A stretch of 64,000 nucleotides of DNA from Candidatus Latescibacterota bacterium (GTDB lineage Bacteria > Latescibacterota > UBA2968): NCBI GenBank assembly GCA_965222605.1, contig OZ244960.1, forward strand, positions 5,984,001 through 6,048,000, in the 5' to 3' direction. The notes beneath the pieces were generated by a model. That model made no database searches. It worked only from the letters and a program-made list of their open reading frames with translations, and had not been told where the DNA came from. A program made the position numbers and the translations under genes. Below are positions 18,110 to 37,211 of this stretch, piece after piece (position 1 is the stretch's first letter; the number at the start of each line of letters is the position of its first letter).

Positions 18110-18126
18110 CAAAGAGGAGTGGCTCA

Positions 18127-21670: not shown

Positions 21671-21686
21671 TGGCACATGGTTTGCT
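21671..21686 (+). promoter_or_regulatory. Sigma-54 (-24/-12) promoter
   Basis: TGGCAC-ATGGT-TTGCT matches TGGCAC-N5-TTGCW with GG-N10-GC spacing. Confidence 0.85.
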
Positions 21687-21731: not shown

Positions 21732-22013
21732 ATGGCAATGTTCAGAGTCGTAAATATAGTTGATGGAGACACATTTGATGTGTCGTCCTGGAAGTGGAAA
21801 GGACAGACAGGAACTCGGGTGCGCCCAACGGGTTACGATGCACCTGAGCTTTCATCATCTCAAGGACAAGCAGCTAAGAGAAAATTGACGAATCTAATTT
21901 TGGGGAAGGACGTTGAGTTGCGGCAGGCACACCGAATTGATAGAGGACGTCTCGTGTGCGACGTTTACTACAACGGGGTTTATCTGGCTCACTACTTTCC
22001 CGAATATCAATAG
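21732..22013 (+). CDS. Thermonuclease (SNase-like) small nuclease, no signal peptide
   Basis: IVDGDTF, RVR..GYDAPEL, DRGRLVCDVY; RBS AGGAGG at 21720-21725. Confidence 0.8.
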   Translation: MAMFRVVNIVDGDTFDVSSWKWKGQTGTRVRPTGYDAPELSSSQGQAAKRKLTNLILGKDVELRQAHRIDRGRLVCDVYYNGVYLAHYFPEYQ

Positions 22014-22028
22014 GTGGGGTATATCTAA

Positions 22029-22874
22029 GTGAAGCGGAAATTTCAGGTCTGCAATGGCTATTATCTTGAATTTGAGCAACTTGCCAGAGTATTGAATTTT
22101 CTAAAAGCCAATCTTGATGCTAAAAAGATTAGTCGGGCTGATCTGATGGATGGGACAGGGCTCTCAGAGCGGCAGATCGAAAGTCTGGTAAGTGTTGGAG
22201 CTGCGATGGATTTGATTCAGCGTGGCAAGCAGATCCTTAGCGAGTCCGGTAGATTGATTGCCGAGAATGATATTTTTATTGAGGCAAAGGGATCTCTGGA
22301 ATGGTGTCATTACAAAGGTGCTGGTAATTATCGAAACCTAATCTGGTACGATATTTTTAATGTCATTCTTCCCTATGAATCGCCTATGACGTCTGAAGGG
22401 TGGATGGCCCATCTAAGGGAGATTTTGGCTGGGCAGTACACGGACAGGACGATTGGCAAGCATCTTCAAGAGGAAGTTCGTTTTGTTGAGAACGCATACC
22501 TTGAACGGAATTTTGGACGTCTTGAACTGCTGTATCAGAGTTCAGAGAATTTCATAAGCCGTCGCCGTCATTCTAATCCCGATCCCAAGGTTTTTGCCGC
22601 CATTCTCTACGCCTATGCTGAGGTTCATAATGCGAATTTGCATCAGGTAAAAGATCTTGTGGAAACGGTGGGTGCTCCAGGTTTTTTGTTTGCTCTCGAC
22701 GAGGGTACACTCAGATTGATTTTAGAGGAACTGCATAAGCGCGGTTGGATTCGCTTTGAGGGTACTCATAATCTGGATCAGGTTCGGCTGAAAAGCGAAT
22801 TCTCGTACCTTGATTTTCTCGCAGCCTATTATGAAGATCGCGAACCCGAGGCAAAATCAGTCTCAAAAGGATAG
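22029..22874 (+). CDS. DUF4007 (SspB/BrxA-like winged-helix) protein
   Basis: LSESGRLIAENDIFIEAKGSLEWCHY, WYDIFN, APGFLFALDE and GTHNLDQV follow the DUF4007 pattern as I recall it. Confidence 0.65.
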   Translation: MKRKFQVCNGYYLEFEQLARVLNFLKANLDAKKISRADLMDGTGLSERQIESLVSVGAAMDLIQRGKQILSESGRLIAENDIFIEAKGSLEWCHYKGAGNYRNLIWYDIFNVILPYESPMTSEGWMAHLREILAGQYTDRTIGKHLQEEVRFVENAYLERNFGRLELLYQSSENFISRRRHSNPDPKVFAAILYAYAEVHNANLHQVKDLVETVGAPGFLFALDEGTLRLILEELHKRGWIRFEGTHNLDQVRLKSEFSYLDFLAAYYEDREPEAKSVSKG

Positions 22875-22884
22875 GGACGCATTC

Positions 22885-23352
22885 GTGAATGATGGCATCG
22901 ATATTATCAAGCAGGCAAAGGGATTGCCCCAAAGACCAAGGGGTAGAGCGTGTATTGTTTTGACGCACAAACATGAGGAGCAAAGGGCCTGGGCTAAGGA
23001 ACTGGCCGTGCAAATGGGTGCACATCATCTCGATCTGTTGGATCATTTTGCATCTCATCCAGATTTGACAGAGAATATTGGGCAATTTACAATTCAGAAC
23101 CTGTTCGATTTGCTGTCCTCAATGAGGAATCAGAAGGTTTTGATTGTGACCGGTTTGGAGTTTTTGTTGGCAACATGGACGGGCAGTCCTAGTGCGATGG
23201 AGCAATTTGCGCATCAGATTGAATCCTGGGATAAATCGCCAGCCTTGCTGATTGTCATGCAATACGATGGTGCGCTGGCTACCAGAAGGTTCACACGATA
23301 CCCTCAGTATAAATTCGTTGTAGATCAAAAGGAGACGTTTGCACTGTTATGA
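22885..23352 (+). CDS. Small degenerate P-loop-fold BREX accessory protein (BrxF/BrxB-like)
   Basis: ~155 aa from GTG 22885; alpha/beta pattern with KVLIVTGLEFLL at a Walker-B-like position, no Walker A; ATGA overlap with the MTase. Confidence 0.5.
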   Translation: MNDGIDIIKQAKGLPQRPRGRACIVLTHKHEEQRAWAKELAVQMGAHHLDLLDHFASHPDLTENIGQFTIQNLFDLLSSMRNQKVLIVTGLEFLLATWTGSPSAMEQFAHQIESWDKSPALLIVMQYDGALATRRFTRYPQYKFVVDQKETFALL

Positions 23353-26300
23353 AAAATCAAGGTCTTTTTAGCACATTATTCATTGAAGACATTCAGAAAG
23401 AAACAGAACTGGACGATATGGGCGGGGGTCGTATGACCGCCCTGGCTCAAGCCTGGCAAGCGTGCAATCGAGGCTCTGCTGATGATCTATGGGAAAGTTT
23501 TGTCAAGCAGGCGGTTAGTTACCTGGAGTTCGCGCCGCGCGCTGCACCGGCTGTTCCTGGAATTTATCTCCTGTATGAAGATTGGGGATTTAGGAACTGC
23601 CTTTCAGTGCTTTGTCTTGTTGATCCAAAAGGAGATATGGATGATACGCGTGTGGGGCACTTCTGGGTTGGCAAGCTTATTGCCGAACTGAAGGCCTGCA
23701 GTCTCAATTGGGGCATTTTGACGGATGGGAGTTGCTGGCGACTTTATTCCTTAAAGACAGCAAAGCCCTATGAAGAGTACGTTGAATTGCCTCTATCGAA
23801 TGCCCTTGAAAACAATGACGAAGCCGAATATGCTTTGTTTGAGCATTTTTTTCATCGTGATGTTTTTGTGCCAGAGCGACCTGATGAAGATGAGGATGAT
23901 GCAGAAGATGAGAAGGCTACTGTCAAGGAGCTTTACAAGTGCCGTCTGGATAGAGATGGAGAGCAATCTGAAGAGATTCTGGAGGAATATGTAAAATCTC
24001 CACTGCTGAATCAGGTTGATGAAGTCCTCCAATATATCTGCAACGGATTCATTGCGGATACGTCCCGCAAAGGGGGAGAGTACACGGAAGATGAGCGCCG
24101 CGAGATCTTTGAAAGTGCCGTCAAACTCCTCTACCGGTGTTTGTTCCTTTTTTATGCTGAATCACGTCATCTGTTGCCCTCAGATACAGAAAAAACCGAA
24201 GTCTATGAAGAGGGGCTTTCGATTTATGCGTTGTGCCGGGAGGCACATGGTTTTCGTTGGGGGAAGCGTAGTGACCACGGAGAGTATGATCTCTGGCAGC
24301 ACTTGAAAGGGCTGATCAGCGCGGTGAACGATGGCGACTCAGAATACGGGATTATGGGATACGATGGTGGCCTTTTCGACGATGAAGAGGAACTCTTTCT
24401 TGGGCAGCATCGACTGCGGAATGATTTCCTTGCTCGTGCCCTTTATCTGTTGGCTTTCGTTGAGCCTTATAATTCTGATCCAGAAGAAGAATATGAGATT
24501 CCCTATGAGGATCTGGAAGTTCGGCATCTGGGAGAACTGTATGAGAACATCCTGGAATTCAACGTTATGTTGGCCGAAGTAGATATGGTTCGGGTGCAGT
24601 CCAAGAAAGGCACTCAGATCCTTCCAAACACCGAAGTAAAGCAAAGGGCGTCGTCGCGCCTAATAAAAAAAGGGGATGTCTATTTTGGCGAGACTGCACT
24701 TGAGCGGAAGCAGACGGGATCGTATTACACACCGGAGTCATTGGTTCATTTCCTCAACCAGAAGGCTATTATACAGCCCTTAAAGGAGCGCTTTGAAAGT
24801 GATTTCAGGGAGCGGTTTGATCAATTTCTGGAGCAAGCTACTGAAGGATTTGATTCGTCAACGCGGAGCGGGGCCGTTCAATCTGCAGTCGCACTGATAG
24901 AGCGATTCGTGAACGAGGTTGTTCTGGATTTTAAAGTTTGCGATCCGGCAATGGGCAGTGGGCATTTCCTGGTTAATGCGTCAAACCAAATGACGGTTCT
25001 GGTGGTCGATCTGTTTACAGAAATCCCGGTAGCTGAGGGATTCAACTCTGACTTGAATTGTGAGATCAACTATTGGAGAAGGCTGATCACTCGACATTGT
25101 CTCTATGGAGTGGACCTGAATCCTTTGGCAGTTCATCTGGCCAGACTTTCTCTCTGGCTGAACAGCTTTGCGAGGGATCATAAATTGACATTTTTGGATC
25201 ACCATTTGCGGTGTGGGAATAGTCTGATTGGAATCCGATCCCTTAGCCAGCTTCGAAAAATACCTAAAAGGAAAAAGGATCGTCGCAGAAAAACAGATCA
25301 GGAAGAGCTTTTTGATTTGACCCAGTTGTCAAGTATCCTTGATGTTGCTGCTAATACGACACTGAAGATTACCGAAGTTGATGAGGACGATACAGATAGG
25401 CAGAAAGGCATGTTCAGTCAGGCTCAAGATGCTACTGCCGATTTTCATCCATTGGCAGATCTGTTTACAGCCTATTTAATGGATTTAGACATTCAGATAG
25501 TTGATTATAGGGATCTCTTCGAATGTTTGGCAACCGGAAAGTCTGTTTCTAAGACTTTAAATCCTTACTTACCGGAACTTTTGGAATCTATCGGTGCTTA
25601 TCGTGAGAAGCACCAATTCTACCATTGGCCGTTAGAATTCCCTGATGTTTTCGCTCCTGGAGCTATGGGAGGGTTCTCTGCAACAGTTGGAAATCCTCCG
25701 TGGGATATTTTGAAACCTAATTCGCAAGAATTTTTCTATGCGTATGATTCAAAGTTCCGCTCCTATAATAAAAAGGAAGCTAATAGTGTATGCGAGAAAA
25801 TACTCAACCAGAATCTAAGTATACAAGCAAAATGGGAAGATTACTGCGCACGTTTTAGCCAACAGAGTTCATATACAAGGGAACCCTTGACATATCAATT
25901 TCAGGGCAGAGGAGACATAAATACGTACAAGCTTTTCCTTGAGCTGTTCTTTATTCTACTAAATGATAGTGGGTATATTGGCATTCTTGTGCCTAGTGGA
26001 TTATATACAGACCAAGGATGCGCACTGCTGCGAAGATTGTTCTTTGAAAATACGCATGTGGATAGTTTGTTCTGTTTTGAGAATAAAGGTATTTTCAATA
26101 TTCACAGAAGTTATAAGTTTGTCACCTTCTGTACAAGGAAGGGTGAATCTTCTGGTAGGCTCAAATGTGCATTTATGGAACACGATCCAGATAGCTTACC
26201 TCGATTAGAGAAGAATTCGCTCGAAATAAATGTAAACCAAATAAAGAAACTTGCCCCAGAGAACCTAAATATTTTTGAGTTCCAAAATCAACAAGAAATA

Positions 26301-26610
26301 GACATTATCGAGAAGATATATTCCGATCATCCTCCATTAGGGCAGAAATCCAACTCCCCCTGGTCTGTGCTGTTCACTAGAGAGATAGACAATATGGGTG
26401 ACATGGAGATGCTAAATCAAGATGGTTTCGGGGTCCCTCTGTATGAAGGAAAGATGATTCACCAATACAATCCAAACTTCGCCAAAAATAACTATTGGAT
26501 TGACCCGGATAGAGCACGAACAAAACTCAAAAAGTTTCCGGAACAAAAACTGATAAATGCGGATCATTATCGTCTTGTAAATCGCCGCCAAGCACGGACA
26601 ACCGATACTA

Positions 26611-27511
26611 ACCTTTGGTGCTAGTAGATAAGAAGTTGTAAGTCGCCAGAAGTTTACCTATGCTGAATGAGTTAGCACCTCATTCATTCACAGCAGGGAG
26701 GTAAACTTCATGACGACTGAAATGCTGATCATTGACCTGTTCTGTCGGGTAGATGATCAAACGCAAGACCTTGAGAAACATCCTCAAGCCAAGCTCTATC
26801 CCAGCGAAGTCATCACGTTGGCCTTGCTTTTTGCGATTAAAGGGGTGGGCAATCGCGCCTATTATGATTGGCTGATAAACGATTGGCAGCACCTGTTTCC
26901 TAACTTACCTCATCGCACGCGCTTGTTTCGCCTCTTTTTAAGGCATCAACACGCCACAAGCCGATTTTTAGCCGAAAAGAGCGTGTTGGGCATCATTGAT
27001 AGCTATGGCATTGAGTTGATTCATCCGATCCGAGAAGGCAGAAGTCCTGCTCAGATCGGGAAGAAAGGCAAATCGAATTATCGCTGGATTGTCGGTGGCA
27101 AGCTCTGTCTGTTGATCAATCAATGGGGTCTCATCGTGGATTGGGACTGTCAGACAGCTAATGTTCACGATACCACCTTCCACCATCTCATCAAGCAGGT
27201 GCAATCAGACATGGTCGTCTTTGCCGATGTCGGCTTTCAAAAAGCGCAAGACAACCCAGAAAACTTAAAAATCTGTCCGCGTGGCACTTGGAATGAGCGC
27301 ATGGTGGTTGAAACCATCTTATCTATGATGACGCTCGTGTGGCATTTTAAGAAAGTCATGCATCGGGTCTGGAGCTATTTTGCAATGCGATTGGCTTTTA
27401 CCATGGCCGCCTTCAATATCTTGGTACAATGGCAGGGCTTTAAACCCGATGAAGATGGGTTCATTAACCTTGCCATCGCACACTTCAGAATATAACACTA
27501 GCACCAAAGGT
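26611..27511 (+). mobile_element. IS982-family insertion sequence, 901 bp, 5-bp target duplication TACTA
   Basis: Perfect terminal IR ACCTTTGGTGCTAGT (26611-26625) / ACTAGCACCAAAGGT (27497-27511); TACTA at 26606-26610 and 27512-27516. Confidence 0.9.
26710..27495 (+). CDS. IS982-family DDE transposase
   Basis: KLYPSEVITL N-terminus, IIDSYG, FADVGF, ERMVVETILS; RBS GGGAGG. Confidence 0.85.
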   Translation: MTTEMLIIDLFCRVDDQTQDLEKHPQAKLYPSEVITLALLFAIKGVGNRAYYDWLINDWQHLFPNLPHRTRLFRLFLRHQHATSRFLAEKSVLGIIDSYGIELIHPIREGRSPAQIGKKGKSNYRWIVGGKLCLLINQWGLIVDWDCQTANVHDTTFHHLIKQVQSDMVVFADVGFQKAQDNPENLKICPRGTWNERMVVETILSMMTLVWHFKKVMHRVWSYFAMRLAFTMAAFNILVQWQGFKPDEDGFINLAIAHFRI

Positions 27512-28386
27512 TACTAGAGCAATGATTGCGTGTATTCTGCCACCTAATACATTCATGTGGGATAACCTAGCTGTTACGAGAATTCTTGATCCATATGATA
27601 ATGAAGGTAAAGGAACGCTCTTAAATGAACCGGAATTGTGCTATCTTGCAGCAATATTAAATTCTTTTGTCTTTGACTTCGCACTAGGGATGCAGATCAA
27701 TGCGAATCTTAGTTTCTTCATTGTCTATGGAATCCCTGTTCCACGAAAGGCAAAGGGCGATTGGTTTTTCGATAAGATAATCCCACGCGTCGCCAGGTTA
27801 TCTTGTGTTAATCCATCATATGCTCAATTATGGGAAGAAATATACCTGCCTTCTTGGGTAGAAAGTGAATTGTGGTATGAAAAGCAAGGTATAGGCTATG
27901 ATACATACGGACCTGTACATGAGAAGGAAATCCGCGAAAATGTGTTGCAGTCTTTGGGAGATCTCACTCCGATTTGGTCAGAGAAATGTACAGCCAAAGA
28001 TTGGAACTCAAACAAAATGGATATTACACATAGATCTCAATTCCGAGCAGAGTTGGATGCTCTTGTTGCCCACTTATATAGTCTGAGCAGAGAGGATTTC
28101 ACGCATATTCTTGACACTTTCGAGGCACTGAAGCGGAAAGAGGTCGATAACTTTGGGGAGTTTGTATCCAAACGGAAATGTCTGGAGGAATATGATCGGT
28201 TGACACCGGTCATAGAGGCGTGGAATGACCCAGGAAAGTCTGAAATTTGAATTGAAGGGTTGAAGCAATCGGGTATGTCGAAAACAGCTCTTGAATAACT
28301 CGGCTTAGGAGAACTCTGACCCATATATTGCTTCCACAGTTGATGTGCCAAGGAAAATTCTGCCAATTCTGAAGAGGAAAGAAGCG

Positions 28387-31300
28387 ATGAGCAAAATTAA
28401 AGAGGTGGTAAACCTAAAGACTGGCTACGCGAACTTCGTGGTGTTGAAAAGTGCCTTTGAAGAAAGCCAAGAGAATGCTGATCGTATGGCAATGTACCGT
28501 CCCACCACTGCGCATCGCAGAGCATTTGAGCGTCTCTGTCGGGGATTGTATCAGCCTAACGACAAAAAATTCTACTTACTCAGTGGATCGTACGGTACAG
28601 GTAAATCGCATCTTTGTCTGATGTATGCAAATGCACTCAGCCGATCCAGCGGTGATACAGAGATCAAGGGGTTTTATGACAACTATGAGAAACTGGATGC
28701 CAATGCAGCAAAGCAACTGAGAAATATCCGTAAGGGCGGTCAGTACCTGGTTGCGATCTGTGATTACCACTCGGGAAGACGGTTTGAGGATGTGGTGTTA
28801 AAGGCTGTTTTTAAGGCCTGTAAATCCAAAGATCTTGATGCAGAGGTAGAAACAGAATTTGACGAGGCGGAACGCCAGTTGACGGATTGGGAGAGGCAGG
28901 CAGAGGATCCCGCTGCGATCCGCAATTACTATGAAGACTTTTCCAAAGCCCTCGAACGGACTGCGCCAGGGTTGACTGTTGACCAACTTCGTGCCGGTCT
29001 GACTGATTACAATTCTGAATCTTTGGAGCAGTTTAGGGTAGCCTACAAGCTTGCCCAGGGGGGAACAGAATTTCAAGCACAATCGGGTAATCTCATTCCA
29101 ATTGTTCAGAAATTGGTAAGAAGCACGGCGTTCAAAGCTCGGTTCAAGGGACTGGCTATCTTGTTTGATGAGTTTGGATTTACTCTGGAAAAGGCGGCGT
29201 ATTCAAAGGATGTGCTTCAGGGATTCATGGAAACCATCTGCCGAAATGAACCCAATGTTGTTTTTGTAGGTTGTATCCATAAAGACTTCAAAGCATATGC
29301 AGACAGATTTAGTCGGGATGATGCCTCTGTGATGAGCGCACGAATCACAACAGTTGATCTTTTGAATGAAGGTATTGAGGAAATTATCGGAGCAATCGTA
29401 GAGACAGAAAAGACAGGTCAAGTCTGGAACAGCGAAGTGAAACCCAAACTCGGTGTGCTGGACGCTCTATTGCCTGTGTGTGAAACACTCAAACTCTTCC
29501 CCTGGATCCCAGATACCAAGCGAATTCGTCAGCGTGTGCTTGAGGACATTTACGGTGTCCATCCCGCTGCTCTTGCGGCTTTACTCAGACTGTCTTCTGA
29601 GATAGGATCTGACGCCCGCAGCACCTTCACATTTTTCTCTGGTGAGGTAGGCGGGGCTGAGGGTTCCTATGCGGAGTTCATTGAAGACAGCGACTTGCTG
29701 GACAGTAGTGGGAAACTGAACCTTTACATCGTGGATAGGCTTTTCACATTTTTCCAAGGCGAACTGTCTCCCAGCAATGCCGAGTTGCGCGACACGCAGC
29801 GTCAATTGGTCAACGGCTATGTTGCAAGTTTTGATGCCATGCAAAAGGCAAGCGAGAATGAGTTAGTGAATGATCGCGAGGCTCTGCAGACTTCGATTCT
29901 ACAAACTATTCTGATCTATCAGTTGTCGCAGATTCCCACCACTTTGGATAATATCCAGTTTGGCCTATATGCCCTGACTTCAGGAGAAAAGAAGATCATA
30001 GAGACAAACTTAGATCTTCTCGCCAAAACGGGTGCCGTGTTCTTCCGGCAACAGTCAAAGACTTATGAACTTGCTGTCGGAAGCGGTGTTGATCCCTACG
30101 ACCTGATAAATCGCTATCTGGAAGATACGTCTAAGCATCCTGAAGATATGGTCAAGGCATTTCTTTCTGAAGTGAAAAGTCCGGAGGTTCTGGATGCCAA
30201 GCAGCACAATCTTACCTATGGTGAAGACAAACGCTTTCGAACTGTCTATGTGAGAGCGAAAGATATGGGCGAAAATCTTTGGGAAAAACTCAAGAAGGAA
30301 CAATTGGAAGCAGTATTAAAGCCCAACAGTAGCTACGAGGGCGTTGCTGTCTATGCGCTTTGTGAAGATGTTTCAGATATTCAGGTTGCCCGCGAAGCGG
30401 TGCAAGATATTCCGTGCGACGATTTCGTCGTTGGTGTTCCCGATGAGCCACAGCCCTTTACGGAGATGCTTCTCAAAGTCAGGGCATGTAGAAATGCTCT
30501 TGATCCACTATCTGAAGAAAAGCTGAATGCGCAAACCGAATCACGCCTGCGGGATCTTTTTGAGAATCCACAGGATGGATTTCTGCCAACACTTCAAAGT
30601 ATTTTCAAGCAGATTGATAGTGGCGAAGGTGCATGTTGGTACAGTAAGTCTGGAAAAGTCGTTGTGGGTCAGCCAAAGCAGCCGCATGGACCAGTTGATA
30701 CGCTGTGCGAGCAGATGTTTACCAAACGCTGCAAGATTAATCACACAGATTTGAACTGGGTACACGACGATAAATGGCGCACGGCTAGAAACAATGCTTT
30801 GAGACAGGCAGTGAACACGCTTCTGCAGCCTGATCGCGTGCAGATTGACAACGGAAATCCAGCCAGCCATGGAGAAAAACGCTATCTTGAACGGGTATTG
30901 CTGAAAGGTGCAGGAGCATTGAGGAAGATCGATGATGATGGCCCTGTGACGTTCTTTTTTTGTGAAAGTGATTCCAAGAAAATAGACGATAGCTTCCCTG
31001 TTCTAAAGGAACTCTGCGAACGGTTGTCAAATCTCAATTCTGGAGAAAGTCTTCCTATAGGAACATTCATTAACGACGCCAAAAACGCACCATACGGTTC
31101 TGGCGGAACGGCGCTGATGCTTGCCCTGGCACATGCAGTGCGAGCTTTAGGTGAGCGGTTGAGAATCTATAAAGATTCCACTATGATCACTGAATATCCT
31201 GTTGAAGAATACGGAGAATTATCAGCGCTTGTGTCCGATCCTGCTACCAGTGTGGTTTTTGAAGTCCGCGAGATTTCTGATATCCAAAGAAAACTGGTGG

Positions 31301-32457
31301 AAGCAGTCGCTACTACGGTCGGAGCACCGCCACTCAAACATGGCGAAACTCGATCTTTGAATGAAACATTTGAGGTTCTGGAATCCTGGTGGCGCAGTGT
31401 ACCACCGGTGGCAAAGATCACAGAGATTTACGAGAAGAAACATACAGACGGATTGAGGAAGTTCAAGGACGCATTTGATGATATCCGCAATGGTGACCGG
31501 TATGAATTTCTTCTCGGAGGGCTGCCCGCAATTTACGAAGATGAAATTGCAGACGATAAGTTGACTGAGGATGGTGTGAATGCCATTTCTCAAGCATTTT
31601 CCGCACATGTCAAACATTTGAACACTGGCTACCAAATTGTTACAGACAAAGTTGCGGAAGCTGTTTCGGAGATGTTCGGCGAGAAGGGGGATCTTGTTCA
31701 ATGCAAAACCGCTGTCGAAGCCTGGTATGAGGAATTGACACCGAGACAGCGCCAGGCAATGACTTACCAGGACAGTCCGGAGGCTGAAAGCCTGGTTCGG
31801 ATCTTGGGGGATTCTTCCATAGACTTTGAAACTCAATTGACGAACCGTTTGCCAAAAGATTTCGGTTTGGGGGAAGTGTCGGATTGGCCTACCCTTCACA
31901 TTGATGATTATACGGCCAAACTGAAACAGGCACTGGAGGCTGTTGACGCTGCCGCCATTGTCATTGACCCCCCAGAAATTGAAACGGTTGGCAATGCAAA
32001 GCAGATCAATTCTCAGAAATACGAACTCGCGAGTGGCGCTGAGATTCTCCTCAAGATACCTGATGGTGCGTCTTCCCTGATCTATAGCATATCGGAAACT
32101 GATTCAGAGACTGACCCCAAGACCGCCACAGATAGAGTTGTGAGCAAAGAGGACACGGATTTGGGCGATGTCGTTACAGACAAGCCTTTTTCTTATATTC
32201 GCACTCGTGCGATGGATGCTCAAGGAAATTACAGTGATCCAGTCTCCTTTACGGTCATCTACAAACCCCTTGAATACAAGCCCGTATTTAACGATCGGAA
32301 AGACGACCTCTTTGTTCGGGAAGCCCATTTCAAGATCCCTGAGACTGTGGATGATTTGAAAACTGTGCTCAAGGGGATATTAGAGGAATCAAAGACTCTT
32401 AAGATCATTGACGACAAACAGGCAAAGGCACTGATTGCCGTTATAGATGAACTTTGA
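28387..32457 (+). CDS. brxC: BrxC/PglY-like large P-loop ATPase (DUF6079-like) with C-terminal Ig/Fn3-like segment
   Basis: Walker A GSYGTGKS, Walker B ILFDEF, YGVHP; ~1356 aa from ATG 28387; lies between the MTase and PglZ. Confidence 0.8.
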   Translation: MSKIKEVVNLKTGYANFVVLKSAFEESQENADRMAMYRPTTAHRRAFERLCRGLYQPNDKKFYLLSGSYGTGKSHLCLMYANALSRSSGDTEIKGFYDNYEKLDANAAKQLRNIRKGGQYLVAICDYHSGRRFEDVVLKAVFKACKSKDLDAEVETEFDEAERQLTDWERQAEDPAAIRNYYEDFSKALERTAPGLTVDQLRAGLTDYNSESLEQFRVAYKLAQGGTEFQAQSGNLIPIVQKLVRSTAFKARFKGLAILFDEFGFTLEKAAYSKDVLQGFMETICRNEPNVVFVGCIHKDFKAYADRFSRDDASVMSARITTVDLLNEGIEEIIGAIVETEKTGQVWNSEVKPKLGVLDALLPVCETLKLFPWIPDTKRIRQRVLEDIYGVHPAALAALLRLSSEIGSDARSTFTFFSGEVGGAEGSYAEFIEDSDLLDSSGKLNLYIVDRLFTFFQGELSPSNAELRDTQRQLVNGYVASFDAMQKASENELVNDREALQTSILQTILIYQLSQIPTTLDNIQFGLYALTSGEKKIIETNLDLLAKTGAVFFRQQSKTYELAVGSGVDPYDLINRYLEDTSKHPEDMVKAFLSEVKSPEVLDAKQHNLTYGEDKRFRTVYVRAKDMGENLWEKLKKEQLEAVLKPNSSYEGVAVYALCEDVSDIQVAREAVQDIPCDDFVVGVPDEPQPFTEMLLKVRACRNALDPLSEEKLNAQTESRLRDLFENPQDGFLPTLQSIFKQIDSGEGACWYSKSGKVVVGQPKQPHGPVDTLCEQMFTKRCKINHTDLNWVHDDKWRTARNNALRQAVNTLLQPDRVQIDNGNPASHGEKRYLERVLLKGAGALRKIDDDGPVTFFFCESDSKKIDDSFPVLKELCERLSNLNSGESLPIGTFINDAKNAPYGSGGTALMLALAHAVRALGERLRIYKDSTMITEYPVEEYGELSALVSDPATSVVFEVREISDIQRKLVEAVATTVGAPPLKHGETRSLNETFEVLESWWRSVPPVAKITEIYEKKHTDGLRKFKDAFDDIRNGDRYEFLLGGLPAIYEDEIADDKLTEDGVNAISQAFSAHVKHLNTGYQIVTDKVAEAVSEMFGEKGDLVQCKTAVEAWYEELTPRQRQAMTYQDSPEAESLVRILGDSSIDFETQLTNRLPKDFGLGEVSDWPTLHIDDYTAKLKQALEAVDAAAIVIDPPEIETVGNAKQINSQKYELASGAEILLKIPDGASSLIYSISETDSETDPKTATDRVVSKEDTDLGDVVTDKPFSYIRTRAMDAQGNYSDPVSFTVIYKPLEYKPVFNDRKDDLFVREAHFKIPETVDDLKTVLKGILEESKTLKIIDDKQAKALIAVIDEL

Positions 32458-34871
32458 TCAGACTTATGGTCAATCAAACTGAACCATTTGAAATATGTTT
32501 TGTAGGATCGCAAAAGGGTGTTACACCCGAAGGCACTTTGCTCGTAATCACAGATCGAGACTACGTCAAAGCCTGCAAGGCTGTTAATGATGCCGCAAAC
32601 CGACCAAAAGGGGTCTGGGTGGCACAAAGGCCACATGTTGCCTGGTTTAAGGCCTACTGTAATCTACTTGATCTTAATTGCTGCGTTCGAGAACTTACCT
32701 CTCGTGTGATTTTGGCAGACAGGTGGGATGTTACAATACCCGATTGGTTGAATGACCAGAGGGTTGAGTCAGAGAAACTGCTCGACTTAGATATTTCCAC
32801 TGAGGGCGTTGATGATTTTGTAGATGTTGTGTTAGGTCATTTCCTGAGTCGATCCTTTTGTTCATCGAGATTAGACCCAGAGCATGTATCAGAGGTTCTT
32901 TCTGCAGTGGTGAGTTCAGAATACAAAACACATTCTGACCGGTATCCCATAATCAGCGACTGTTTGAGTGAGAAGTGTGTGCAGTGGGAAGAAAACACTG
33001 ATCAATCATGGATGGGAGAATTCAGCCGGAGCCTCGTAGATCAGCCAGATGCGCTCTGGCACGATTTGACTTTGTGGGCACTCCTCGGGCATTATTCAGA
33101 CCAGCTTATTGAGTTCGTCACTGGACCGCAGAGAGTTGTATTTTTGAGGTCAATACCTGTCGGACTTCTGTCCAGCCTGCGTCTTCATCCGGCTGCTGTA
33201 GATACAGCTCAAAATCAGATTCGGCTATTTTTCAATGATATTCTTCAAGACCCTGTATCTTCGACAGAGGATCTCAAGAAAGTTCTGGGTACTGTTTCTC
33301 GTCGGTTAGCCATAGAGTTCTCCTTTGTCGAGCAGATTTTAGAGAACTCAAGTTACGAATTACAGGCAAAGGATATTGAGCTTGTCGAAGAAGTCTTTAA
33401 GACCTGCCCAGGAGTCAGCTCTGTCAAGATTGATGCTCTGGATCGTTTTGTGCCACCTGCCAGACCCTCGGAACAAGACGCTGGTGACGCTTGGGGGGGA
33501 GCCCGATGGTTGGATTGGTCTGTAAAAGAATATATTCCCTACAGGCAATGGCAGATTCAGAACAAGCACTATGAGCGTAAACTCGAACAGACTGTTCAGG
33601 CATTCTCTGATTGGTATGTTGATGAATACATGACCATTCATCAGGATACGGGAAAAAGCCTTGTTCACCTTCTCAGTGAGTGGCGTGAGCATCTGGTAAA
33701 TGACGACCTTTCTTTGATATTGCTGATTGATTGTCTGCCCGTTGCTTTTTGGACGTTATTTGAGGAAGCAATGGGAAATATTGGGTTCCATCGCCACCAA
33801 CAGGAATATAGATTCGCCCCTTTACCGAGCCATACTGAAGTATGCAAACCCTTGTTGCTTGGTAGTGACTGGGAAAAGACGGATACCAAATACGACCGCT
33901 TGCTTCAAGAACGAGGACTCAGAGATTGGCCAGGCAAACAGGTTCTGTATTTGCACAATCTGCAGAAGCTGTCTGAAGCAGACCTGGGTGGCGGTGCATC
34001 TGTTCTTGTGCTGAACTTTCTCGCGGTTGACCGGACCCTACATGCGGACGTTGAGGCAGATGGCAGTACACATAGAGAAGAATTATTCAGATTGTTTGTT
34101 CGTCTTGCAGAAGCAGTAAAAGACCTTTTGAACCGATGGCAGGGAGATAAAGATAAATTCGGGGTGTATGCCGTTACGGATCACGGTGCAACAAAAATCA
34201 TTGATGATGAAAAAGCAACCTTGGACTCACAGATCGTGAATCGTCTGTTTGAGTACGAGAAACACCGGTTTGCTCAGATTCCCAAAGACTGCACAGACGA
34301 AATACCGGAGAATTTGTGGGCTTTTGGGTACAGATTTAAACCACCATTTAACAATCAAGACACGGTGTTCTTTATTCCTAAAGGTCACAATACGGTCAAG
34401 AAGGGCAACAAGACGACAGGTTTTGTACATGGTGGTGCGGCTCCAGAGGAGGTTATTGTACCTGCTGCCATTTTTCGGCCTGTCAAGGTTTCCTGGCGTG
34501 AACCTTTGGTGCGTTTCGTGGATCTTAGGACGGATCGTCAATCTGGGCACGCGATTTTTTATATCTTACGCGTTGTCCCAATCAGACTTGAAGTACAGAA
34601 TCCAAATGCAGAACCCATTAGTATTGTTAGAGTAGATGTTGTCAGTCCAGACGCTGATGTCAAGGAGTTCACAACTGGACAGATTGAGCCAGAATCAGTT
34701 GGCGAATTGTCGCTGAGTTGTTATTTCAAAAAGGCTGCGCAAGATCAAGAGGAACTACTGCTACAGATTACTTATGAACTTGCAGGCGGTGAATACACGA
34801 TGCAGGTTCTTACTGCTGCAGTATTTAGATCGGCCACTACTGGTGGTTTTAATTTGAAAGATTTAACATAG
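32454..34871 (+). CDS. pglZ: PglZ alkaline-phosphatase-superfamily protein
   Basis: LLIDCLP, PLPSHTE, VTDHG, FVHGGAAPEEVIVP; overlaps the brxC stop. Confidence 0.88.
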   Translation: MIRLMVNQTEPFEICFVGSQKGVTPEGTLLVITDRDYVKACKAVNDAANRPKGVWVAQRPHVAWFKAYCNLLDLNCCVRELTSRVILADRWDVTIPDWLNDQRVESEKLLDLDISTEGVDDFVDVVLGHFLSRSFCSSRLDPEHVSEVLSAVVSSEYKTHSDRYPIISDCLSEKCVQWEENTDQSWMGEFSRSLVDQPDALWHDLTLWALLGHYSDQLIEFVTGPQRVVFLRSIPVGLLSSLRLHPAAVDTAQNQIRLFFNDILQDPVSSTEDLKKVLGTVSRRLAIEFSFVEQILENSSYELQAKDIELVEEVFKTCPGVSSVKIDALDRFVPPARPSEQDAGDAWGGARWLDWSVKEYIPYRQWQIQNKHYERKLEQTVQAFSDWYVDEYMTIHQDTGKSLVHLLSEWREHLVNDDLSLILLIDCLPVAFWTLFEEAMGNIGFHRHQQEYRFAPLPSHTEVCKPLLLGSDWEKTDTKYDRLLQERGLRDWPGKQVLYLHNLQKLSEADLGGGASVLVLNFLAVDRTLHADVEADGSTHREELFRLFVRLAEAVKDLLNRWQGDKDKFGVYAVTDHGATKIIDDEKATLDSQIVNRLFEYEKHRFAQIPKDCTDEIPENLWAFGYRFKPPFNNQDTVFFIPKGHNTVKKGNKTTGFVHGGAAPEEVIVPAAIFRPVKVSWREPLVRFVDLRTDRQSGHAIFYILRVVPIRLEVQNPNAEPISIVRVDVVSPDADVKEFTTGQIEPESVGELSLSCYFKKAAQDQEELLLQITYELAGGEYTMQVLTAAVFRSATTGGFNLKDLT

Positions 34872-34885
34872 ATTGAGGTAAACAG

Positions 34886-36865
34886 ATGAGTCCATTTGAA
34901 GTGAAAGCCCGAGATTATTACGGGGAAGTCGTGATCAATAAAGGTTTGATGGGCAAGGCCGGTTTTGGTGCGCGTGCGATTCCTGTCTATGTGGGAGAGT
35001 GGATCATCAGCCAGTTCCTGGAGGGAGATGATTTAACAGAGGACGGCAGAGAGGAAATCGTCAGGATTGTATCCTCTTACTTGCCCCAGAAGGCAGATAA
35101 GAATCTACTCCTCAATCGCCTCAAGGAGCAGGAGGAAGTCCAGATTCTGGATGATTTTCGCGTAAATGTGAATCTGGCTCAAAATACCCATGAGTTGAGT
35201 ATTCCCATTTTAGACGAGACTCATGCGATGATTCAGAAAGGAATTGTTGACGAGAATCCCATGCTGCTCAAGACGGGGATGTGGGGAGTCGGCATGCTCA
35301 GGTATGTGCCCCCAGATGGAGAGGAAGTGAAGAAGGGACAAATCTGGATGGTGGATTTCAAACCTTTCCAAAATCCAGGTGTGGATCTGGACTACTTCAA
35401 AGAATGCCGACAACATTTTTCTTTGGACGAGTGGATTGATCTGCTGGTTTCGAGTAGCCAGTTTAACCCAGACGTTCTGAAACTTCCTCAGAAAATGCTT
35501 TTGCTTGGTCGTATTATTGCGCTGGTGGAACCTCGGGTCAATGTGGCTGAACTGGCCCCAAAGGGTACAGGCAAATCATTTATCTTTGACAACATTAGCC
35601 GTTATGCGGCAGTCATTCCCGGTGGTAAGCTGTCTGCCCCCACTCTTTTCTTCAACAGTGCCTCTAAACAGATGGGCTTGATTCCGAGATACGATGTTGT
35701 TGTTGTCGATGAGGTGCAGAAGATCCAGACAGACAATGCTGGCGAGGCTATGGCAGGACTGAAAATGTACCTCGAAAGTGGACGTTATCGCCGTGCGACA
35801 GGTGATATGGGTACATCGGAATCTGGGTTTGTAATGTTGGGGAACATAACCCTAGGCCCTGACCGAAGACCGCTTTATGAAACGAATGGGATCTTCGAAG
35901 AATTGCCTGCGGCGTTGCAGGAGTCTGCTTTTGTTGATCGCGTTCATGGCTTGCTTGAGGGATGGTTTATGCCAAGAATTACGCGGGATACACCTTCAAA
36001 AAGTCTGGGCTTCAAAGGTGACTTCTTCAGCGAAGTCCTCCATGAATTGCGAACAGATCTACAATATGCCGATTATGTTTCCCATATGCGCTTGCCCCAG
36101 TGCGAGGACATGCGAGATAACAAGGCCGTCGCTCGGCTTGCAGAAGGCTTCCTGAAGTTGCTGTTTCCCGACTTGAAGGTTAGCGAACAAGAATTCACTG
36201 AATACTGTGTAAACCCTGCGGTTCGTATGCGCCAACAAATTCGAGATGAGCTTGCCCGACTGGATCAAGAATTTAAGTGGGTAACTATAAAGAGTGAATA
36301 CCCAGATGAATTCCAGCTTTCACATCCAGACGAGAAACCAGGGCCGTTACCAGAAGCAGTAGAAAATGATCCCTTATCCCCCAATAGACAACCCGTTGAA
36401 GCCACATTGGATATCAAAGAGGGGCAAAAGGGCATTTCTTATTTGAAACTCTTTAGCCCTTATCTAACCGGAGCCACAGAGATTAGATTGGTTGACCCCT
36501 ATATCCGATATGATTATCAGATTTATAACCTCCTGAGCTTTTGTGAAATGATCGCTCCCGATCAAGGCAATATTAAGGTGTGTCTGGTGACTGGTACTGA
36601 CTCTGATTACCAGAAGCAGCAGGGTCTCGATGCTACTTTCAAAGATATTCAGAATCAGCTTGTTCAAGATCGGGTACTTCTGGATTATGAATTTAGCGAC
36701 ACAAAACACGACCGAATGATCGAGGCTGATACTGGCTGGCGAATTGTTATAGGACGGGGCCTGGATATCTTTCAGAAACCTGAAGGGAAATTTTCACTGG
36801 GATTTGTTGATCAGACGAAACGAAAGTGCAAAGAAACAACGATCACTTACGTCCGGAAAGAGTAG
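34886..36865 (+). CDS. brxL: BrxL AAA+ protein with C-terminal MIT_C (PLD-like) domain instead of a Lon protease domain
   Basis: EWIDLL, ELAPKGTGKS, DVVVVDEVQ, AFVDRVHG; tail DPYIR..YQIYNL...HDRMIEADTGWRIVIGRGLDIFQ. Confidence 0.85.
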   Translation: MSPFEVKARDYYGEVVINKGLMGKAGFGARAIPVYVGEWIISQFLEGDDLTEDGREEIVRIVSSYLPQKADKNLLLNRLKEQEEVQILDDFRVNVNLAQNTHELSIPILDETHAMIQKGIVDENPMLLKTGMWGVGMLRYVPPDGEEVKKGQIWMVDFKPFQNPGVDLDYFKECRQHFSLDEWIDLLVSSSQFNPDVLKLPQKMLLLGRIIALVEPRVNVAELAPKGTGKSFIFDNISRYAAVIPGGKLSAPTLFFNSASKQMGLIPRYDVVVVDEVQKIQTDNAGEAMAGLKMYLESGRYRRATGDMGTSESGFVMLGNITLGPDRRPLYETNGIFEELPAALQESAFVDRVHGLLEGWFMPRITRDTPSKSLGFKGDFFSEVLHELRTDLQYADYVSHMRLPQCEDMRDNKAVARLAEGFLKLLFPDLKVSEQEFTEYCVNPAVRMRQQIRDELARLDQEFKWVTIKSEYPDEFQLSHPDEKPGPLPEAVENDPLSPNRQPVEATLDIKEGQKGISYLKLFSPYLTGATEIRLVDPYIRYDYQIYNLLSFCEMIAPDQGNIKVCLVTGTDSDYQKQQGLDATFKDIQNQLVQDRVLLDYEFSDTKHDRMIEADTGWRIVIGRGLDIFQKPEGKFSLGFVDQTKRKCKETTITYVRKE

Positions 36866-36893: not shown

Positions 36894-36930
36894 AAAGAGG
36901 AGTGAGTTCACTCACTCCTCTTTCCTTTTT
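36894..36930 (+). terminator. Rho-independent terminator ending the BREX-like operon
   Basis: 13-bp stem AAAGAGGAGTGAG-TTCA-CTCACTCCTCTTT followed by CCTTTTT, 28 nt after the brxL stop. Confidence 0.8.
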
Positions 36931-37211
36931 GGGCTTCAAGAGGCATTTAAATGCGTTCCAATCCAGGTTTAATATTCCGCTCCGATATCACTCATCAATC
37001 GCTTAATCAAGGGATTTATTGCAGGATTGAGTGGTTGGCACATATATTGCTCTACCTAAGGTATAACAGAAAAGGGGAGGTATCTCAGCAAGATGATACA
37101 CCTATTAAAATCCCTGATGAGCAGGTGGTTGCGGTCAAAGATGGGCAAATCGTCAAGGACGGCAACTGGTAGTTTTTCGCTGAATTCTCGATTATTGTAC
37201 AGGAGGGTGAA

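Follow-up and report, generated by a model that had tools for sequence, protein, structure and literature searches.

A probable methylation-based BREX-family defense system, of a lineage absent from the typed models, in a Candidatus Latescibacterota genome

Systems of the bacteriophage exclusion (BREX) family are common, yet how they recognize phage DNA and stop it is unsettled. In this report, we found that a 64,000-nucleotide stretch of the genome of a Candidatus Latescibacterota bacterium (assembly GCA_965222605.1, contig OZ244960.1, positions 5,984,001 to 6,048,000 of the forward strand; hereafter “the window”) carries a cassette that is probably a single transcription unit encoding a methylation-based defense system of this family, from a lineage absent from the typed models and from the literature that we searched. 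The core order of the cassette is a DUF4007 protein, an inactive P-loop adaptor (p180), a methyltransferase of about 1330 amino acids (aa), an optional cargo slot, an SspC-like BrxC, PglZ, and a BrxL-HKD. It is a variant of BREX, not a new kind of system: a PglZ protein of the alkaline-phosphatase fold and an adjoining BrxC/PglY-type AAA+ ATPase, both recognized from their sequences, place it in the BREX superfamily.

The original prediction, made from the letters of the window, had described six tightly coupled genes (DUF4007, BrxF/BrxB-like, adenine methyltransferase, BrxC, PglZ, and BrxL with an MIT_C domain). The list of open reading frames (ORFs), Pfam, PADLOC, and NCBIfam all agree with that description. 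The six genes lie on the + strand where it had placed them (Table 1), and the junctions between them are 4-nt overlaps or gaps of at most 15 nt, the exceptions being an insertion sequence (IS) and the 95-143 nt that precede BrxC. All of the cassette genes other than the methyltransferase align with their homologs over their full lengths (tblastn), and the catalytic motifs of the methyltransferase, BrxC, PglZ, and the BrxL tail are kept. PAPS reductase, cysteine desulfurase, helicase, and kinase had been called absent, and a Pfam scan of the eight cassette ORFs indeed found none of these domains. The unit begins farther upstream than had been thought; a sigma-54 promoter and a 93-aa gene precede DUF4007, and both this gene and the RtcR/sigma-54 layer of control had been overlooked.

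The order of the cassette is conserved in other genomes, whether the search is seeded with PglZ or with the methyltransferase, and the syntenic intact loci that the original prediction had proposed to seek were found from both seeds. This conservation, read from the sequences, points to a real, widely conserved, and unnamed branch of BREX. A PglZ-seeded scan of one genome per species gave 32 close loci at 33-48% identity (two of which, L011 and L013, are a single contig under two names). Their carriers are Thermodesulfobacteriota, Syntrophales, Planctomycetota, Verrucomicrobiota, Kiritimatiellae, Lentisphaerota, Omnitrophota, Gemmatimonadota, and one gammaproteobacterium. By tblastn, BrxC precedes PglZ in 28 of the 32; the other four contigs begin within PglZ or shortly ahead of it. 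BrxL comes after PglZ in 31, the remaining contig ending there. The methyltransferase was seen in 16 of the 32 by tblastn, and also in L009 once that locus was extended; where no methyltransferase is visible, the locus ends too early, save in L026. DUF4007 and p180 are visible together in six (L005, L011, L013, L014, L015, and L031), and L002 shows part of p180 only. When five genomes were extended, DUF4007 was present in each, just upstream on the same contig in four and on a separate short contig in the genome G005. In the extended L009, cargo lies after the genes for DUF4007, a 156-aa protein, and a 1397-aa Eco57I-type methyltransferase. A word-indexed PglZ search gave 23 clusters, which the methyltransferase search showed to be an undercount of the family. 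The BrxC gene of L029 has one in-frame stop; its contig belongs to a metagenome-assembled genome (MAG) of very low coverage.

The N-terminal 500 residues of the methyltransferase match 1140 protein clusters at E ≤ 1e-5, and the best 120 of the 1140 are 62-100% identical. From these we drew 80 metagenome loci (L102-L181). p180 was present in all 74 that have at least 600 nt upstream of the methyltransferase, and DUF4007 in all 58 with at least 1600 nt. Downstream, BrxC was found in 26/26 loci with at least 7 kb of flank, in 29/32 at 5 kb, and in 32/36 at 3 kb. In 20/20 cases BrxC is followed by PglZ, and in 10/10 PglZ by BrxL. The placement of the methyltransferase upstream of brxC, which had been proposed from the window, is thus confirmed there and conserved elsewhere. 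The two genes are at most 128 nt apart in 12 of 35 metagenome loci; in the other 23, unrelated cargo of 0.8-6.7 kb separates them. Cargo in this slot also occurs in L007, L009, L012, L016, L018, L023, L025, L027, and L030, as it does in many of L102-L181. The genes found there include AbiEi/AbiEii, Schlafen/AlbA_2-HATPase_c_4-HTH, the YhcG nuclease, KAP NTPase, IrrE-HTH, GmrSD_N, MazF, ParA-like, and DUF4062 genes. Damaged copies, L029 among them, thus occur outside the window too: between BrxC and PglZ, we observed an insert of about 2 kb in L022 (3568-5673; ORFs of 184 and 406 aa) and a gap of 1.1 kb in L163 (10431-11538).

The BrxC-like ATPase matches no Pfam or NCBIfam model; with PADLOC it scores 131.1 bits as SspC vs. 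38.7 bits as BrxC, and it has a Walker A motif (GSYGTGKS) and a Walker B motif (ILFDEF). The cassette PglZ scores 28.7 bits on the NCBIfam type 4 model (NF033445, cut-off 140), 17.9 on the type 1 model (TIGR02687, cut-off 270), and 15.4 on the type 3 model (cut-off 250), and the PglZ models of BREX types 2, 5, and 6 do not match it at E ≤ 0.01; for comparison, the PglZ of the type 1 locus L082 scores 798.7 bits on the type 1 model. Its PADLOC scores are at most 25 bits, these weak matches falling on PglZ models only. Further, 21 of 23 homologs have a precomputed PF08665 match, the family profile reaches a PglZ chain in the Protein Data Bank (PDB; 9zn5_B, E 0.0024), and the motifs TDHG(A) (residues 575-579) and HGG (659-661) are invariant. 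The sole match of the Pfam PglZ model in the source genome (E ≤ 1e-5) lies in another frame, of about 530 aa (G000:C1:4418670-4419245), and not in the cassette protein, which has therefore diverged far from that model. Frames of about 520-535 aa that match the PglZ model recur in 159 of 168 genomes of the phylum; a longer typed example, L093, is PorX (662.9 bits). BrxL matches Pfam BrxL_ATPase (328.8 bits), MIT_C (156.5 bits), and BrxL_N, and it scores 431.1 bits on TIGR02688, above the cut-off of 329. The H608-x-R610-x4-D615 motif of its tail is invariant in all 19 aligned family members, and the BrxL of the type-1/6-like comparator L092 also aligns across this C-terminal tail.

To place PglZ and BrxC among known systems, we built trees with comparators of types 1, 3, 4, and 6-like. 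NCBIfam typed L082 as type 1 and L084, L085, L088, L094, and L096 as type 3; L091 and L092 are type 6-like below the cut-off, and L093 is PorX. L083 and L095 carry labels given by similarity, with no NCBIfam scan. The type 4 comparators L037-L039 were recognized by BrxP and, for L037, by strong PADLOC matches to BrxC and PglZ. In the PglZ tree (IQ-TREE, 33 sequences), the cassette family forms a clade of its own (16 rows; support by the Shimodaira-Hasegawa-like approximate likelihood ratio test, SH-aLRT, of 99). It groups with the Ktedonobacteria and type 4 proteins (22 rows, SH-aLRT 89), the branching inside that group being unresolved, and the type 1/6-like (SH-aLRT 99) and type 3 (99) proteins stand apart. 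In the BrxC/SspC tree (27 sequences), the family is again a clade (SH-aLRT 100) in a group with Ktedonobacteria, type 4 BrxC, and SspC (SH-aLRT 98), with type 1/6-like and type 3 outside. BrxL is 46-50% identical to the Ktedonobacteria proteins, 34-36% to those of type 4, and 26-30% to the type-1-like ones. The trees that the original prediction had proposed as a check thus put the cassette clades outside type 1. Together with the BrxL identities, the methyltransferase, and the lack of BrxP, they bear out its suggestion of a type-4-like chassis that uses methylation in place of phosphorothioation.

The same evidence makes it unlikely that the cassette is a rearranged, highly diverged type 1 BREX. 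That its PglZ and BrxC lie outside the type 1/6-like clade (separating branches with SH-aLRT of 92/89 and 98) argues against this origin, as do the type 1 scores of PglZ (17.9 vs. 270 bits) and of the methyltransferase against PglX (52.9 vs. 500). The gene order differs, Pfam and the fold both make the first protein DUF4007/SspB-like rather than BrxA, and BrxL has 26-30% identity to type-1-like proteins vs. 34-46% to those of type 4/Ktedonobacteria. The cassette does have the same six functional slots as type 1, its BrxL passes TIGR02688 (431 vs. 329 bits), and its tail, along which L092 also aligns, is the BrxL-HKD form that a re-survey of BREX (PMC12839542; Nucleic Acids Research 2026) reports, in its main text, from type 1 only.

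The methyltransferase is, by its motifs and model scores, a gamma-class N6-adenine enzyme of about 1330 aa that is DrmMI/type-IIG-like and is not PglX. Its N-terminal part matches Pfam Eco57I (75.3 bits), MmeI_Mtase, and N6_Mtase, and motifs I (DPAMGSGHF) and IV (NPPW) are intact. The PADLOC scores are 271.6 bits for type IIG, 255.3 for DrmMI, and 34.8 for PglX. On the NCBIfam model for BREX-1 PglX (NF033452), it scores 52.9 bits, below the type 1 mark (cut-off 500), and on the methyltransferase models of types 2, 5, and 6 it scores 16.8-30 bits (cut-offs 400-900). A PDB sequence search gave no match at E ≤ 0.001. We considered an active type IIG enzyme and rejected it: the candidate N-terminal D/E...E-x-K positions vary in eight aligned members (e.g., A-P-P and Q-L-R). 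Identity across the family is 59-65% over the first 500 residues and only 32-55% over residues 746-1087, a segment in which the target-recognition region probably lies. As a gauge of co-inheritance, a tree of residues 746-1087 was tried; its topology differs from that of the BrxC tree, and the segment, which diverges more than any other part of the protein, is uninformative on this point.

In the window, an IS982-like element divides the methyltransferase gene. Inverted repeats of 20 bases (26606-26625 and 27497-27516) and a 5-bp target duplication (26606-26610 and 27512-27516) border it. When the element and one 5-bp duplicate are removed, the reading frame runs from the N-part into the C-part. 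The 242-aa ORF downstream (27522-28250) weakly matches methyltransferase C-termini, and in homologs (e.g., in L005, L011, and L031) the two segments form a single gene of about 1300-1350 aa. The transposase matches Pfam DDE_Tnp_1_3 and scores 70.3 bits on the NCBIfam IS982 model, under its cut-off of 130. Eleven copies of the element occur in the genome, nine of them identical over 901 bp, one identical over 891 bp, and one at 96%; these near-identical copies fix the boundaries of the element and indicate recent activity. In type 1 BREX, loss of the methyltransferase also abolishes restriction. This copy of the cassette is thus probably inactive: with its methyltransferase split by a recently active IS, the system would be off for both modification and restriction, and an active IS has probably silenced it in the source genome.

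The DUF4007 protein has the fold of SspB. Its best PADLOC matches are SspB (32.4 bits) and BrxP (30.3 bits). An AlphaFold2 (AF2) model (pLDDT 89.6, pTM 0.90) matches the SspB crystal structures 6JUF and 6LB9 (Foldseek E 2e-7, TMq 0.72), the next matches being at E 3e-3 and a TM of about 0.2; BrxA is not among the 50 Foldseek matches listed. A search of PDB sequences with the family profile reached SspB only at E 0.12; it took the fold search to make the likeness visible. The claim that the protein encoded at 22029 is a DUF4007 protein, and not an ordinary BrxA, therefore stands, both by Pfam PF13182 and by fold.

The second protein, p180, matches nothing in Pfam, PADLOC, or NCBIfam. Its homologs align from about residue 25, so GTG 22882 is probably the real start. 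The AF2 model (pLDDT 87.4) has a P-loop/AAA+ fold; Foldseek gave nothing below E 1e-3, with AAA+ domains at about 1e-3 to 1e-2, and the matches from VIA-align (Z 6-8.3) were to P-loop proteins in general. The Walker A motif is lost in the cassette family and retained in the Ktedonobacteria homologs. Relatives of p180 match PADLOC BrxF at 20.8-23.2 bits, the Ktedonobacteria homologs at 20.8 bits. When 1.84 billion representatives were searched with a profile, 162 relatives emerged at E ≤ 1e-3, most of them about 150-165 aa long. One relative, P0058 (470 aa), is a fusion in which a p180-like domain (residues 328-445) accompanies a Ser/Thr kinase (PADLOC PD-T4-6, 202 bits), a layout that recalls the kinase and inactive-STAND arrangement reported for PglW of type 2 BREX. 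A complex of p180 with PglZ residues 1-400 was predicted at an ipSAE of 0.85, the best control reaching 0.00; the mark applied to this score is passed by 58 of 80 solved complexes and by 2 of 110 mismatched pairs. At least 96% of the contacts are common to the runs, the partners have a pLDDT of at least 81, and the interface comprises PglZ residues 34-73, including the invariant Y37, V38, C41, and W64. A BrxC-BrxB-PglZ complex from Acinetobacter has already been solved (9zll), so this pass may reflect the likeness of p180 to BrxB and is not proof of binding. We predict that p180 is a BrxB/BrxF-like, inactive P-loop adaptor on PglZ's N-terminus. The earlier description of it as BrxF/BrxB-like accords with the P-loop fold, the eroded Walker A, the BrxF match of the Ktedonobacteria homolog, and the predicted binding of PglZ.

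That p180, a product of the upstream half, is predicted to bind PglZ, a product of the downstream half, bears on whether the cassette is one system. It could be two that stand side by side: DUF4007, p180, and a IIG/DrmMI-like methyltransferase on the one hand, and on the other a decayed, type-4-like BrxC-PglZ-BrxL set that lacks BrxP. Unlike a remnant, the BrxC, PglZ, and BrxL ORFs are intact and keep their catalytic residues across phyla. The association of the halves is strict from both seeds, BrxC being present in 26 of 26 loci and the methyltransferase wherever the flank allows (one rearranged exception aside), even though cargo stands between the methyltransferase and BrxC in most loci. 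The methyltransferase has type IIG and DrmMI as its best PADLOC matches, but its nuclease-like motif is not conserved, which argues that it is not a self-sufficient type IIG enzyme. In the portion of PMC12914056 (Nature Communications 2026) that deals with a Fischerella neighborhood of dndBCDE, brxL, brxZ, sspB, and a methyltransferase, the authors saw the methyltransferase as possibly independent. On balance, we consider two adjacent systems quite improbable.

A single system whose mark is made elsewhere in the genome is another possibility: the chassis could, as that of the Ktedonobacteria perhaps does, read phosphorothioate supplied in trans by SspABCD, with the methyltransferase as an add-on. 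The source genome does encode a complete SspA-SspB-SspC-SspD set (L097, G000:C1:1598000-1617000, at about 1.60 Mb; PADLOC 430, 362, 558, and 313 bits), followed by PbeA-like and PbeC/DndD-like genes and then by NsnA-like and SIR2/ThsA-like genes. This locus, a second defense island, stands 4.4 Mb away with Pbe-like partners of its own, and the only two PF01507 (PAPS reductase) matches in the genome are 0.7 and 4.4 Mb distant from the cassette. The flanks of the cassette-family loci likewise lack such genes: among 43 of these loci (L001-L032 and L040-L050), there is no match to PAPS reductase, BrxP, or Ssp/SspD. In contrast, BrxP is present in 3/3 type 4 loci, and ssp genes adjoin the methyltransferase-less chassis in all four Ktedonobacteria loci, a link to phosphorothioation that the SspB-like DUF4007 and the SspC-like BrxC would also suit. 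A second canonical DUF4007 was found in only 2 of 10 other carrier genomes, the 8 negative ones being, like the rest, MAGs in which absence is not proven, and the methyltransferase is invariably present. We regard supply of the mark in trans as highly improbable.

The cassette lies on a low-GC island (0.43-0.48 over positions 16001-40000 vs. 0.53-0.60 in most flanking bins), and its PglZ was not found in 40 relatives of the source organism (20 from its genus, 4 from its family, and 16 from its order). Because of this low GC content and this absence, the island appears to have been acquired. Two sulfatase genes (16547-19539), one with a C-terminal EF-hand/dockerin-like tail, occupy the low-GC stretch just upstream of an RtcR-like gene. 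The RtcR-like protein, with matches to Pfam Sigma54_activat (214 bits), Cas_Csm6_CARF, and RtcR, and to PADLOC RtcR_PspF2--CARF_AAA_HTH (420.9 bits), is likely the regulator of the cassette unit. The exact sigma-54 consensus occurs twice in the window, where 0.12 sites are expected, and two sites were reached in 1 of 100 shuffles. The 93-aa protein may, tentatively, be a small SNase-like protein (Pfam SNase, E 0.0069, 17.3 bits, under the cut-off of 21); a PDB sequence search with it gave nothing meaningful. The carrier G005 has an RtcR-like gene (56% identity), an exact sigma-54 site, and a 93-aa homolog (54%), followed by DUF4007; no other cassette locus had a 93-aa homolog at E ≤ 1e-5.

Sigma-54 control as a trait of the whole family was considered and rejected, a relaxed motif lying within 700 nt upstream of DUF4007 in only 2 of 58 metagenome loci. 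These two, L164 and L165, are near-identical, and in both an RtcR-like gene lies directly upstream of DUF4007. Among the loci gathered before the metagenome ones, an exact site occurs only in L043/L050. Only a minority of the cassette loci show the RtcR association, namely the window, G005, and L164/L165, with L179 and L121 as possible further cases. In L164, L165, and L179, where the RtcR-like gene is upstream of DUF4007, an insert of about 1.4 kb separates p180 from the methyltransferase. Downstream of the cassette, the second sigma-54 promoter precedes a metallophosphoesterase and an SMC ATPase, an SbcCD-like pair that the RtcR-like activator possibly co-regulates with the cassette. No other locus showed this pair next to the cassette, and the two promoters share no upstream activator site besides the -24 element. 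Superoperons of defense systems led by RtcR, with BREX among the member systems, are described in part of the study of Bell et al. (eLife 2024; PMC11090510). As in the superoperons treated there, an RtcR-like CARF/sigma-54 activator stands at the 5' end of co-directional defense genes in the window; unlike them, the window has no CoCoNuT/McrBC genes.

Table 1. Features of the cassette and of its surroundings, in coordinates of the window (CARF, CRISPR-associated Rossmann fold; HTH, helix-turn-helix; PLD, phospholipase D)
Feature	Coordinates	Strand	Basis or remarks
RtcR-like CARF, sigma-54 AAA+ and HTH activator	19990-21555	+	Pfam, PADLOC
Exact sigma-54 promoter, TGGCAC-N5-TTGC	21671-21685	+	47 nt before the 93-aa gene
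First operon gene, 93 aa (s93)	21732-22013	+	Directly precedes DUF4007
DUF4007/SspB-like gene, BrxA position	22029-22874	+	Pfam PF13182, 57.4 bits vs. cut-off 27
p180, 180-aa BrxB/BrxF-like P-loop ORF	22810-23352 (maximal; likelier start GTG 22882)	+	Fold, homolog alignment
N6-adenine methyltransferase, N-part, about 1087 codons to the IS junction	23349-26610 (ORF runs to 26624)	+	Eco57I/MmeI_Mtase/N6_Mtase
IS982-like element, 901 bp	26611-27511 (transposase ORF 26710-27495)	+	Terminal inverted repeats, target duplication
Methyltransferase, C-part, about 245 codons, displaced by the IS	27512-28250 (242-aa ORF 27522-28250)	+	Frame continuity, homologs
BrxC/SspC-like AAA+ ATPase, 1370 aa	28345-32457 (likelier start ATG 28393)	+	PADLOC, Walker motifs
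Divergent PglZ, 805 aa	32454-34871	+	Weak PglZ-model matches, motifs
BrxL with C-terminal MIT_C/PLD (HKD-type) domain	34886-36865	+	BrxL_N, BrxL_ATPase, MIT_C
Intrinsic terminator closing the operon	36894-36923	+	13-bp stem with 6 GC pairs, T-rich tail, 29 nt past the BrxL stop
Second exact sigma-54 promoter	37036-37050	+	Before the metallophosphoesterase/SMC-ATPase pair
Metallophosphoesterase, calcineurin-like, 370 aa	37212-38324	+	Pfam Metallophos
SMC/AAA ATPase, 806 aa	38321-40741	+	Pfam AAA_23, AAA_15, SMC_N; best PADLOC match LmuB, 91 bits

How might such a system work? The methyltransferase would be the sequence-reading subunit and would mark a host motif with N6-methyladenine (m6A), acting with BrxC, with PglZ and the adaptor on its N-terminus, and with DUF4007 as a DNA-binding protein. 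The same complex could then engage incoming DNA that is unmethylated, which might be cut, or its replication blocked, through PglZ as a metal-dependent nuclease and BrxL as a ring translocase with an HxR...D PLD nuclease tail. As to its evolution, the phosphorothioation module of a type-4/Ssp-like chassis was probably swapped for a methyltransferase. In the source genome, the cassette would have arrived on the low-GC island, come under the RtcR-like CARF/sigma-54 activator, and later been split by the IS.

Several points weigh against our reading of the cassette as a methylation-based BREX lineage. Methylation, a target motif, and restriction of phage are assigned to it by analogy with type 1 BREX, and the suggestion that loss of the methyltransferase would also disable restriction here draws on what is known of type 1. 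PglZ and BrxC score very weakly on every curated BREX model, and with the Pfam PglZ model the protein in the window gives no match at E ≤ 0.001. The similarity of p180 to the BrxB chain 9zll_G (Z 6.9, root-mean-square deviation 3.7 over 133 residues) is tied with that to unrelated P-loop proteins. Both trees are quick searches with SH-aLRT support only, they drew warnings about long branches and composition, their typed BREX comparators come from types 1, 3, 4, and 6-like only, and the cassette clade, the Ktedonobacteria clade, type 4, and SspC form a polytomy in them. Given the cargo insertions, the methyltransferase half and the BrxC half are physically separable. Locus L026 has 6.5 kb upstream without a methyltransferase, an N-terminally truncated BrxC, and a RecD2-type gene on the opposite strand. 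Finally, with SspABCD encoded in the same genome, the cassette may be linked to phosphorothioation.

The published surveys hold several of the parts of the cassette. The main text of PMC12839542 treats DUF4007 as equivalent to BrxA-like modules, detects modules of the BrxB kind in every BREX type, and gives BrxL-HKD as type-1-specific (1030 of 2913 taxa), in the same H-R-D form as the cassette BrxL. The MIT_C/HKD form of BrxL is thus already known and is not new here. The main text also defines “BR” systems, which have helicases, and discards unassigned matches; a cassette of DUF4007, methyltransferase, BrxC, PglZ, and BrxL is not described in it. Searches of the literature on DUF4007, DUF4007 with PglZ, BREX subtypes, and type 7/VII BREX gave no account of such a subtype; the supplementary tables of PMC12839542 and PMC12914056 lie outside these searches and may list such loci under type 1, type 4, or “unassigned”.

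Since the cut-offs of the typed NCBIfam PglZ and methyltransferase models are missed and BrxC matches no NCBIfam model, annotation based on models is expected to under-call this lineage. It is nevertheless large (1140 methyltransferase clusters) and spread over many phyla. BrxC, PglZ, and BrxL of the type-4/Ssp-like kind in the company of adenine methylation amount to a natural experiment that sets the mark-reading parts against the restricting ones. We offer, as a tentative proposal, that this is a seventh widespread BREX lineage, and that its restriction chassis, made up of the BrxB-like adaptor, the SspC-like BrxC, PglZ, and BrxL, is indifferent to the chemistry of the self-mark. The SspB-like protein would be a conserved adaptor between the modification enzyme and the BREX machine: sister lineages would use a fused BrxP (type 4), a neighboring SspBCD (Ktedonobacteria), or, here, a DrmMI/IIG-like m6A enzyme recruited through the SspB-like partner, with one sub-branch under infection-sensing RtcR/CARF sigma-54 control. 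At least one of the methyltransferase matches bears the name of a strain in culture (Desulfosarcina variabilis str. Montpellier); if this organism carries the whole cassette, the system is testable.

Type 1 BREX has the order brxA-brxB-brxC-pglX-pglZ-brxL, and type 4 has brxP-brxC-pglZ-brxL. The order of the cassette matches no described type and no typed PglZ or methyltransferase model is reached, both of which uphold the proposal of an unclassified subtype that links BREX and Ssp systems. The cassette has no helicase domain, unlike type 3, which BrxHII and PglXI define. A kinase (PglW) marks type 2, and helicases mark types 5 and 6; no domain of either kind was found in the cassette. The DrmMI match of 255 bits recalls class 1 DISARM, but neither a helicase (DrmA) nor a DUF1998 protein (DrmB) is in the operon, and unlike in a type IIG restriction-modification enzyme, an N-terminal PD-(D/E)xK nuclease is not conserved. 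The main text of PMC12839542 gives BR type 3 as a DUF499 ATPase, a methyltransferase, a Swi2/Snf2 helicase, a stand-alone PglZ, and iSTAND; unlike it, the cassette has no helicase, has a PglZ of 805 aa with a long N-terminal region, and includes BrxL.

With type 1 BREX, the cassette shares six functional roles, the logic of methylation, a BrxL-HKD with H-x-R...D, and a predicted BrxB-like adaptor on the N-terminus of PglZ, as in the Acinetobacter complex (9zll). It differs in that the BrxA slot holds a DUF4007/SspB fold and that the methyltransferase is type IIG/DrmMI-like, not PglX, and precedes BrxC. With SspABCD, it has in common the SspB fold of its first protein and an ATPase that scores best on SspC models; unlike SspABCD, it lacks SspA and SspD and has PglZ and BrxL. 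On identical models, the genome's own canonical SspB and SspC reach 362 and 558 bits, and the cassette proteins 32 and 131 bits, about a tenth and a quarter of those values.

Type 4 supplies the nearest typed PglZ and BrxC in the trees and the best, though weak, NCBIfam match of PglZ, and it likewise has both a DUF4007 domain and BrxL. Unlike type 4, the cassette has a 1330-aa adenine methyltransferase in the stead of the PAPS-reductase BrxP, and its DUF4007 is a stand-alone protein. Its BrxB-like protein is separate, whereas the main text of PMC12839542 reports fusion to PglZ in 292 of 457 type 4 taxa, and its BrxL has an HKD tail, whereas according to the same text that of type 4 has no C-terminal domain. 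The Ktedonobacteria form (L033-L036; Ktedonobacter/Dictyobacter, with a chassis that is interrupted and fragmented in L035) arranges DUF4007, a small P-loop protein, BrxC, PglZ, and BrxL as the cassette does, and it has the closest BrxL outside the cassette family and a place in the same superclade. It is unlike the cassette in having no methyltransferase, a 163-aa P-loop protein that keeps its Walker A (GEPRCGKS), and a BrxL of 475 aa with no C-terminal domain. In 4/4 of these loci, sspB-sspC-sspD lie 2-6 kb downstream, sspD being seen where the flank reaches.

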